From: Escherichia coli
GTDB taxonomy: Bacteria > Pseudomonadota > Gammaproteobacteria > Enterobacterales > Enterobacteriaceae
Assembly: GCF_003334315.1 (NCBI RefSeq)
Contig: NZ_QOWR01000026.1
Length of the DNA stretch: 57,948 bases
Strand: one strand, 5' to 3'
Position 1 is the stretch's first letter. Each line of letters starts with the position of its first letter. Of this stretch, positions 6,590-6,652 are shown in pieces. The position numbers and the translations under genes are program-made. The notes beneath the pieces were generated by a model. It worked only from the letters and a program-made list of their open reading frames with translations. It had not been told where the DNA came from and searched no databases.

Positions 6590-6652
6590 CTGTTCATATC
6601 TGTTCATATTCTGCCGTAAGCCGTTCATCCTGACCAGTGCCGCTGTTCATAT
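6590..6652. promoter_or_regulatory. Tor boxes: four decameric TorR-binding repeats in the torR-torC intergenic region
   Basis: CTGTTCATAT at 6590-6599, 6600-6609 and 6643-6652, and CCGTTCATCC at 6621-6630. Confidence 0.85.

Follow-up and report, generated by a model that had tools for sequence, protein, structure and literature searches.

The control regions treated here belong to well-described systems of Escherichia coli K-12: the tor boxes between torR and torC (Simon et al. 1995; Ansaldi et al. 2000), the put control region, of which about 420 bp have been published (Zhou et al. 2008; PDB 2RBF), the Pho box of phoH, also named psiH (Kim et al. 1993; PMC10294691), and the promoter of efeUOB, also named ycdNOB. 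The last of these operons differs in state between strains, since efeU is a frameshifted pseudogene in K-12 MG1655 whereas O157:H7 and Nissle 1917 have a functional EfeUOB (PMC3832793).

We examined a 57,948-bp stretch of E. coli DNA, referred to below as the window, which carries all four regions. Its four site sets are almost certainly the canonical cis-regulatory sites of these four well-studied E. coli control systems, carried here by a non-K-12 chromosome, and the TorR, PutA, Fur and PhoB sites are all already known. A preliminary description of the window had presented them as a sanity check rather than a novelty, a judgement with which we agree, every element being already described and its sequence being as in the reference strain. 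What the finding provides is quality control: the E. coli chromosome is well assembled, and its classical control regions for TMAO, proline, iron and phosphate are undamaged, so that the annotations and regulatory knowledge of K-12 are transferable to the window. It leaves current understanding unchanged and names a sole functional difference from K-12, the intact efeUOB operon. In what follows, presence, K-12 identity, enrichment and cross-genus conservation were computed, protein binding and regulatory effect are taken from the literature, and promoter positions are inferred.

The window comes from an ordinary E. coli chromosome that is not K-12. With a 2-kb probe taken around the tor boxes, we found matches in 5,419 of 5,426 complete E. 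coli genomes, and several of these, strain CP53 among them, are 100% identical to it. Read from the CP53 annotation, the gene order is cspG-yccM-torS-torT-torR/torCAD-cbpMA-yccE-agp-wrbA-rutG..A-rutR and, after rutR, putA/putP-efeUOB-phoH-...-csg-...-mdoGH-...-yceJ. When positions 204-34716 were compared with MG1655, we found 98.9% identity over 34.5 kb, with five single-base indels. The torR-torC spacer (6572-6700, 129 bp) and the efeB-phoH spacer (33265-33608) show no difference at all, the putA-putP spacer (422 bp) has one, at 27519 and outside all motifs, and the putP-efeU spacer has nine, none of them in the Fur box and the nearest, at 29892, lying just outside it. Because these spacers are identical or nearly identical to those of K-12, the experimental results obtained in K-12 transfer directly. 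Neither the window nor the put spacer gave an Rfam match relevant to the regulator sites, and in the four spacers generic sigma-70 and terminator scans did not exceed shuffle expectation.

Such closeness also allows a different reading, namely that the sites are intact merely through recent kinship with K-12, inherited rather than maintained, and that regulation in the source strain may differ. With an overall divergence from K-12 of 1.1%, a 129-bp spacer with no differences is indeed unsurprising in itself, and Fur regulons differ substantially among E. coli strains (PMC10164565). We nevertheless judge this reading very unlikely. The two trans factors encoded in the window, TorR and PutA, are themselves intact (the PhoB and Fur genes lie outside it), and further evidence against it comes from the comparisons across genera and strains that are given with each region, starting with the tor region, whose features are as follows.

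5879-6571, minus strand: torR, encoding the response regulator that binds the tor boxes; intact, 230 aa, annotated as torR in CP53
6590-6599, plus strand: tor box 1, CTGTTCATAT, an exact match, 19 bp from the torR start codon
6600-6609, plus strand: tor box 2, CTGTTCATAT, an exact match, in tandem with box 1
6621-6630, plus strand: tor box 3, CCGTTCATCC, degenerate (7/10) and low-affinity
6643-6652, plus strand: tor box 4, CTGTTCATAT, promoter-proximal, ending 49 bp upstream of the torC ATG
6661-6666, plus strand: TAAGAT, the probable torC -10 hexamer; TAAGAT is kept by 6 of 9 genera in the alignment
6701-7873, plus strand: torC, first gene of the torCAD operon and the regulated target

The TorR protein is 100% identical over its full length to a 2,925-member cluster named TorR, its receiver domain matches PDB 1ZGZ, as befits an OmpR-family activator, and TorR, TorS and TorT are all intact within the window. 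The divergent torR/torCAD arrangement is that of K-12, and the 129-bp spacer is base-for-base the same. TMAO would be sensed by TorT/TorS, and the phosphorylated TorR would bind the four direct decameric repeats. Boxes 1 and 2 are reportedly the high-affinity site, in work attributed to Ansaldi 2000, in which torR autoregulation is also said to have been reported. The four decamers announced upstream of torC are indeed there, three exact and one degenerate, and their span of 6590-6652 is exact. The sequences of boxes 1, 2 and 4 and of box 3 are as published, and in gel shifts TorR shifted boxes 1, 2 and 4, whereas box 3 alone gave no shift (PMC9239176).

Motifs as short as these could in principle be chance AT-rich words without regulatory meaning. 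Part of the evidence looks that way, since decamers with up to two mismatches occur 52 times in the window against 45 expected, which is the chance rate, and we dismissed such matches elsewhere (e.g. at 6880, 8496 and 47329) for this reason. Exact copies of CTGTTCATAT, whose core is TTCATA, behave quite differently: the window has three, all on the plus strand and all within 63 bp, against a shuffle mean of 0.09, and none of 100 shuffles reached three. Together with the clustering and conservation described below, this makes the chance reading exceedingly improbable.

For the comparison between genera, tor loci of E. albertii, Citrobacter, Salmonella, Edwardsiella, Providencia, Plesiomonas, Serratia and Aeromonas were fetched via their TorR homologues, giving an alignment of 9 genera. 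All the loci compared have the divergent torR/torC layout and four boxes in register. The box columns agree with E. coli at 89%, the remaining spacer columns at 59%; by box, the figures are 97% for box 1, 82% for box 2 (whose TTCATAT core is kept) and 93% for box 4. On this alignment, the tor boxes are under purifying selection in other TorR-encoding species. That they persist in genera in which the surrounding spacer has fallen to about 59% identity is difficult to reconcile with mere inheritance from a recent ancestor shared with K-12. Within the species, 5,101 of the 5,426 complete genomes carry the 63-bp box segment unchanged.

A sigma-70 scan of the spacer found no consensus sigma-70 promoter for torC, as is expected of an activator-dependent promoter. 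With TAAGAT as the -10 element, the inferred geometry would place box 4 at about -31 to -22, adjoining the -35 position. Binding at the promoter-proximal boxes 3 and 4, which would abut the -35 position, may then activate torCAD, and the tandem boxes 1 and 2, at 19-38 bp from the torR start codon, could mediate torR autorepression as well.

The behaviour of box 3 raises the question of how many of the listed sites count as operators. It is possible, although we lean against it, that only a subset is functional, box 3 and the PutA motif at 27526-27531 being weak or accessory, in which case there would be fewer independent operators than "four" and "five" imply. Box 3 has only a 7/10 match and no shift of its own, which fits this proposal. 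Against it, the position of box 3 and its GTTCAT core are kept in all 9 genera, a conservation that fits cooperative binding with box 4. The second half of the proposal concerns the put control region, which has the following features.

23537-27499, minus strand: putA, encoding the trifunctional repressor/enzyme; full-length ORF, 1,320 aa
27526-27531, minus strand: PutA motif TAAGTTGCACCTTT, 27 bp upstream of the putA ATG, lineage-specific
27559-27566, readable on both strands: PutA motif GTTGCAAC, within an invariant block in the 11-sequence alignment, at about -363 from the putP ATG
27571-27576, minus strand: PutA motif GGTTGCAC, 12 bp from the motif at 27559-27566
27703-27708, minus strand: PutA motif GCGGTTGCACCTTT, within an invariant GGTGCAACC in the alignment
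27728-27733, minus strand: PutA motif GGTTGCAC, within an invariant AGTGCAACCT in the alignment
27922-29430, plus strand: putP, encoding the proline/Na+ symporter, second target of PutA repression

The 422-bp spacer is the counterpart of the published region of about 420 bp, and its motifs do not differ from those of K-12, the one SNP in the window lying outside them. Zhou et al. 2008 reportedly footprinted all five E. coli GTTGCA sites with PutA, which speaks against counting any of them out. The motif at 27703-27708 presumably matches the O2 oligonucleotide crystallised with PutA52. Residues 1-52 of the PutA encoded in the window match PDB 2GPE and 2RBF (104 bits), and also 2AY0, and correspond to the ribbon-helix-helix domain. 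The literature describes how PutA binds operators in the interval between putA and putP and how it switches function (PMC5879082, PMC5293562). When proline is scarce, the ribbon-helix-helix domain would bind the GTTGCA operators and repress both divergent genes; proline would then reduce the flavin cofactor, PutA would leave the DNA for the membrane, and repression would be lifted.

GTTGCA and its complement occur six times in this interval at five distinct sites, because GTTGCAAC reads on both strands, and the count of five motifs first given for 27526-27733 is therefore the right one. Over the whole window GTTGCA is not enriched (49 observed, 51 expected), which taken alone would again favour chance. 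However, five sites within 208 bp were reached by none of 500 first-order Markov sequences, and the density elsewhere in the window is 0.15 per 208 bp.

We also retrieved, with PutP as the query, 80 loci from different Enterobacteriaceae species, most of which keep the putA/putP-efeUOB-phoH synteny and 75 of which had scorable put spacers. In these 75, GTTGCA reaches 9.7 per kb within the spacer, compared with 0.49 per kb in the flanks. Two motifs spaced 12 bp apart, at about -363/-351 from the putP ATG (27559-27566 and 27571-27576 in the window), are present in 74 loci, and two spaced 25 bp apart, at about -218/-193 (27703-27708 and 27728-27733), in 66. These four of the five sites lie within invariant blocks in the alignment of 11 sequences from different genera and species. 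The fifth, at 27526-27531, was found only in E. coli and E. whittamii, both among the 11 aligned sequences and among the 75 scored loci; in the alignment it is absent from E. albertii, Citrobacter, Salmonella, Enterobacter, Klebsiella, Kosakonia, Cedecea and Atlantibacter. Relative to other Enterobacteriaceae, the putA-proximal motif of E. coli is an additional one; some genera have a different fifth motif at about -321, and exactly four motifs are present in 51 of the 75 loci. With no conservation beyond E. coli and E. whittamii, the motif at 27526-27531 makes a less certain contribution, and its absence from those eight aligned taxa, like the frequency of loci with exactly four motifs, counts in favour of the proposal of a functional subset.

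Downstream of the ymdG upstream ORF, the putP leader also carries two short hairpins for which a comparison of 63 species shows strong compensatory covariation. A premature 3' end has been reported in the literature for the ymdG-putP leader.

Weight matrices for TorR and PutA were rejected, because the consensus of each derives from these very loci and the test would be circular; the clustering statistics and cross-genus conservation given above were used instead. Weight-matrix validation is meaningful for PhoB, and for Fur via published work only. The phoH region has these features.

33442-33460, plus strand: Pho box CTGTCATCACTCTGTCATC, two direct 7-bp repeats (CTGTCAT) with 11-bp periodicity
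33473-33478: ACTAAT, candidate phoH -10 element, 12 bp downstream of the Pho box
33609-34673, plus strand: phoH, from the 354-aa start of K-12

For PhoB, we built a matrix from 55 ChIP-seq sites (Table 1 of PMC10294691), omitting four sites that map to the window region. On this matrix the phoH Pho box scores 19.06 bits, against a training median of 15.4, and ranks second of about 116,000 positions; a score as high was reached in only 5 of 400 random 58-kb sequences, which is not what chance words would give. The weight-matrix scan proposed in the preliminary description thus places the box above the typical bound site, and the box it had put at 33442-33460 is present and equals a site of known binding. 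Indeed, the 18-mer TGTCATCACTCTGTCATC at 33443-33460 is the PhoB ChIP-seq site reported upstream of phoH (score 11), and phoH RNA dropped significantly from 37,076 in the wild type to 13,375 in the phoB deletion (PMC10294691). The centre of the ChIP-seq peak, 1084845, maps to position 33462 of the window. Neither the 18-mer nor the efeB-phoH spacer differs from K-12.

The Pho box is invariant in three aligned E. coli sequences in which the flanking bases vary, and 59 of 68 species have a site scoring 10 bits or more at about -164. In CP53, the PGAP annotation gives phoH a 262-aa product that starts at window position 33885. Bound to the Pho box, which lies some 150 bp upstream of the phoH ORF, phospho-PhoB would activate a phosphate-starvation promoter, the box probably taking the place of the -35 element. 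The top PhoB site of the window by the same matrix lies elsewhere, upstream of agp at 14148-14165 (19.5 bits), and is likewise a published ChIP-seq site (PMC10294691).

The iron-regulated locus requires more caution at the level of the motif. Its features are as follows.

29894-29913, strand not assigned: Fur box and best consensus match of the window, 59-78 bp upstream of the efeU ATG
29972-30802, plus strand: efeU, intact, 276 aa; annotated as intact in CP53

The 19-mer CGTAATGATAATCGCTATC at 29894-29912 matches the 19-bp consensus GATAATGATAATCATTATC at 15 of 19 positions, and the 7-1-7 element TGATAATCGCTATCA at 29899-29913 matches TGATAATnATTATCA at 12 of 14; no other position of the window matches either consensus as well. 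The site had been placed at 29895-29913 and called Fur-box-like, which is at most 1 bp off these alignments. An equally good match occurs somewhere in 14-16% of random 58-kb sequences, a frequency that leaves some room for chance, so that "Fur-box-like" is the right wording on sequence evidence alone; by sequence the match is only modestly significant, and context is needed to convince. The 15-mer motif of Gao 2023 was of no help as a test: on this MEME-style consensus the efeU site has 10/13 and is not top-ranked, hence not discriminated, the best match lying inside mdoC.

The context is nevertheless extensive. Cao et al. 2007 and McHugh et al. 2003 are reportedly earlier sources for a Fur box of efeUOB (ycdNOB). 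An information-theory model of 24 Fur sites gives the ycdN (efeU) cluster, whose K-12 sequence is identical, 20.1 bits (Chen et al. 2007, PMC2189734), and a Fur ChIP-exo peak has been assigned to efeU_1 (Gao et al. 2023, PMC10164565). With an offset of +778 between genome versions, checked against the published distance of -57, the peak and the cluster map to window positions 29907-29922, beside the Fur box. The same ChIP-exo study places efeU, efeO and efeB in the core Fur regulon of the nine strains tested and found efeO and efeB derepressed in their fur mutants (PMC10164565); a core shared by nine strains is hardly expected if the site were a relic of kinship with K-12.

The K-12 promoter is identical to that of the window from 29893 to the efeU start. 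In an alignment of the window, K-12 and two polymorphic strains, the core of the Fur box is invariant and the flanking bases vary; in the few strains aligned, the E. coli polymorphisms inspected adjoin the Fur and Pho boxes and none falls inside, again unlike what inheritance without maintenance would lead one to expect. In 66 species a homologous box is found some 72 bp upstream of efeU, and in 65 of these 66 loci it is the top-ranked site. An automated scan had suggested loss of the box in E. albertii, which proved to be an artefact of a different best hit, the alignment showing the box with one substitution.

Unlike in K-12, efeU is intact in the window because a G at 30077, missing in K-12, is present, and by its intact efeU the locus resembles those of O157:H7 and Nissle 1917. 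Fe2+-Fur would bind the box 59-78 bp upstream of efeU and repress efeUOB. The source strain is predicted to encode an intact ferrous-iron transporter and, the operon being intact here, Fur regulation would govern a working system. A further Fur-like cluster, upstream of yceJ at 57598-57612, agrees with a published prediction and with a ChIP-exo peak reported for E. coli W.

Considered across the four regions, all the site sets lie directly upstream of their cognate regulated genes and coincide with published ChIP or gel-shift sites, and their positions are conserved in tens of genera, the four PutA sites, the Fur box and the Pho box being fixed in about 60-75 Enterobacteriaceae species. The reading of the matches as chance words is already refuted by the clustering statistics and the cross-genus conservation. 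This conservation also independently supports function and shows that the sites are under selection. The claim that the sites match what is known of these regulons agrees with K-12 identity and with the published binding sites, and the further claim that regulation is probably conserved gains support from the same identity and from the comparison between genera.

Against the ancestral enterobacterial layout, E. coli may have small lineage-specific changes within these textbook control regions that shifted their regulatory set-points, an idea that we put forward tentatively and that we think is somewhat doubtful. Three changes could be counted. The first is the additional PutA motif, located 27 bp upstream of the putA start codon and otherwise present only in E. 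whittamii. The second is a Fur box one mismatch weaker than the version found in most other species: TGATAATCACTATCA stands about 72 bp upstream of efeU in 52 of the 66 loci, whereas the E. coli box reads ..ATCGCTATCA, one step further from the consensus than the ..ATCACTATCA of those 52 species. The third is the perfect tandem of tor boxes 1 and 2, which is collapsed to a single copy in a rare allele (14 of 5,426 E. coli genomes) absent from the window. Were the set-points indeed shifted, these would be tractable examples of cis-regulatory micro-evolution, the candidate effects being a tighter autorepression of putA, a leakier expression of efeUOB and an altered autoregulation of torR.

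The 5′ leader of putP contains two short hairpins for which we found strong compensatory covariation among 63 distinct Enterobacteriaceae sequences:

27849-27869, + strand, hairpin 1 of the putP 5′ leader, 7 bp
27877-27897, + strand, hairpin 2 of the putP 5′ leader, 6 bp

Paired cells made up 89% in these hairpins as compared with 27-51% in slid controls, and double-change cells numbered 149 as compared with 22-51, while the observed covariation values were reached in none of 500 shuffles. In hairpin 1, CGTTCCGG is almost invariant across the loop and the closing pairs. The many G-U pairs indicate that the folding strand is the + strand RNA, which is the putP sense. 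A search of Rfam with the leader hairpins gave no match. The 8-aa upstream ORF ymdG sits 86-134 nt upstream of them, and Adams et al. 2021 (PMC7815308) count ymdG-putP among the upstream ORFs that are followed by a 3′ end at a distance of less than 200 nt. The hairpins may represent an uncharacterised attenuator or another regulatory element.

The put control region itself varies among relatives. Of the genera aligned, E. coli and E. whittamii alone have the putA-proximal GTTGCA motif (27526-27531), 27 bp 5′ of the putA ATG, and several genera, E. albertii, Salmonella and Kluyvera among them, carry an alternative fifth GTTGCA motif at about -321 from putP. In CP53, an E. coli strain identical to the window in a 2-kb probe, and in many other genomes, RefSeq/PGAP places a 69-aa 'hypothetical protein' at 27554-27763 (+ strand), covering four of the PutA operators, whereas the K-12 annotation has only the 8-aa ymdG (27737-27763) in this region. 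The 69-aa ORF call is probably spurious.

Beyond putP, the iron uptake gene differs from its K-12 MG1655 counterpart:

29972-30802, efeU, intact, 276 aa

In MG1655 the G of window position 30077 is missing and efeU is a pseudogene; since the gene is intact here, the window strain has the functional EfeUOB form. The putP-efeU spacer (29431-29971) is 541 bp long in the window, with nine differences from K-12; in E. whittamii, E. albertii and the majority of other genera it is much shorter, about 220 bp. The additional 320 bp or so in the window precede the conserved Fur-box region and include a REP-like, GC-rich palindromic sequence.

When the window was scored with a weight matrix built from 55 PhoB ChIP-seq sites outside it (PMC10294691), the highest value, 19.5 bits, fell upstream of agp:

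14148-14165, + strand, PhoB site AGTCATATTTCTGTCACA, 36 bp 5′ of the agp ATG

The sequence is an exact match to a published PhoB ChIP-seq site, and agp RNA goes up, not down, upon phoB deletion. This site was missing from the preliminary description, as was a Fur-like match near the other end of the window:

57598-57612, Fur-like match to the 7-1-7 consensus form (11/14), about 82-96 bp 5′ of yceJ

The yceJ gene is on the - strand and ends at about 57516. The match agrees with a Fur cluster of 20.6 bits that PMC2189734 predicts at -89 of yceJ, and with a Fur ChIP-exo peak assigned to yceI-yceJ in E. coli W (PMC10164565).

Upstream of phoH, the sequence of the E. albertii representative NBRC 107761 becomes divergent halfway through the Pho box (equivalent of 33430-33452); only the downstream half-site CTGTCATC is kept, and the best PhoB score there is 4.1 bits. 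Past the Pho box and ahead of the phoH ATG, conservation of 33513-33612, a stretch that includes AATATATTGTTGCAAT and GTTCCCGGCAGTGATAGTCAGTCACTATGGAGATCGCGGATGG, is very strong between Escherichia and Citrobacter, in contrast to the PhoH protein, whose similarity to other genera begins only at about residue 52-58 of the 354-aa K-12 ORF. The PGAP call for phoH is a 262-aa product, as compared with the 354 aa of K-12.

The tor boxes also vary within E. coli. In strain JNEC-KY204, a 10-bp deletion in the box 1-box 2 tandem (equivalent of 6590-6609) removes one of its two copies, leaving three tor boxes; box 3 of this strain reads CCATTCATCC. Of 5,426 complete E. coli genomes, 14 have this natural one-copy allele, among them those of some O157:H7 and O45:H2 strains.

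Gene content departs from K-12 just past phoH, where collinearity stops (34716-36040 region) and the K-12 pgaABCD-ycdT-ycdU block is absent from the window. The two genes located there, and yccE elsewhere in the window, are:

35257-35943, DUF2726-family gene, between phoH and serX
36038-36122, - strand, tRNA-Ser gene serX
12653-13561, yccE, frameshifted relative to K-12

A segment of 181 bp that carries the annotation RtT sRNA repeat stands beside serX in CP53, which is otherwise identical, but is missing from the window. The yccE gene has one A fewer than in K-12, at 13535, and CP53 yccE is likewise annotated as a frameshifted pseudogene.
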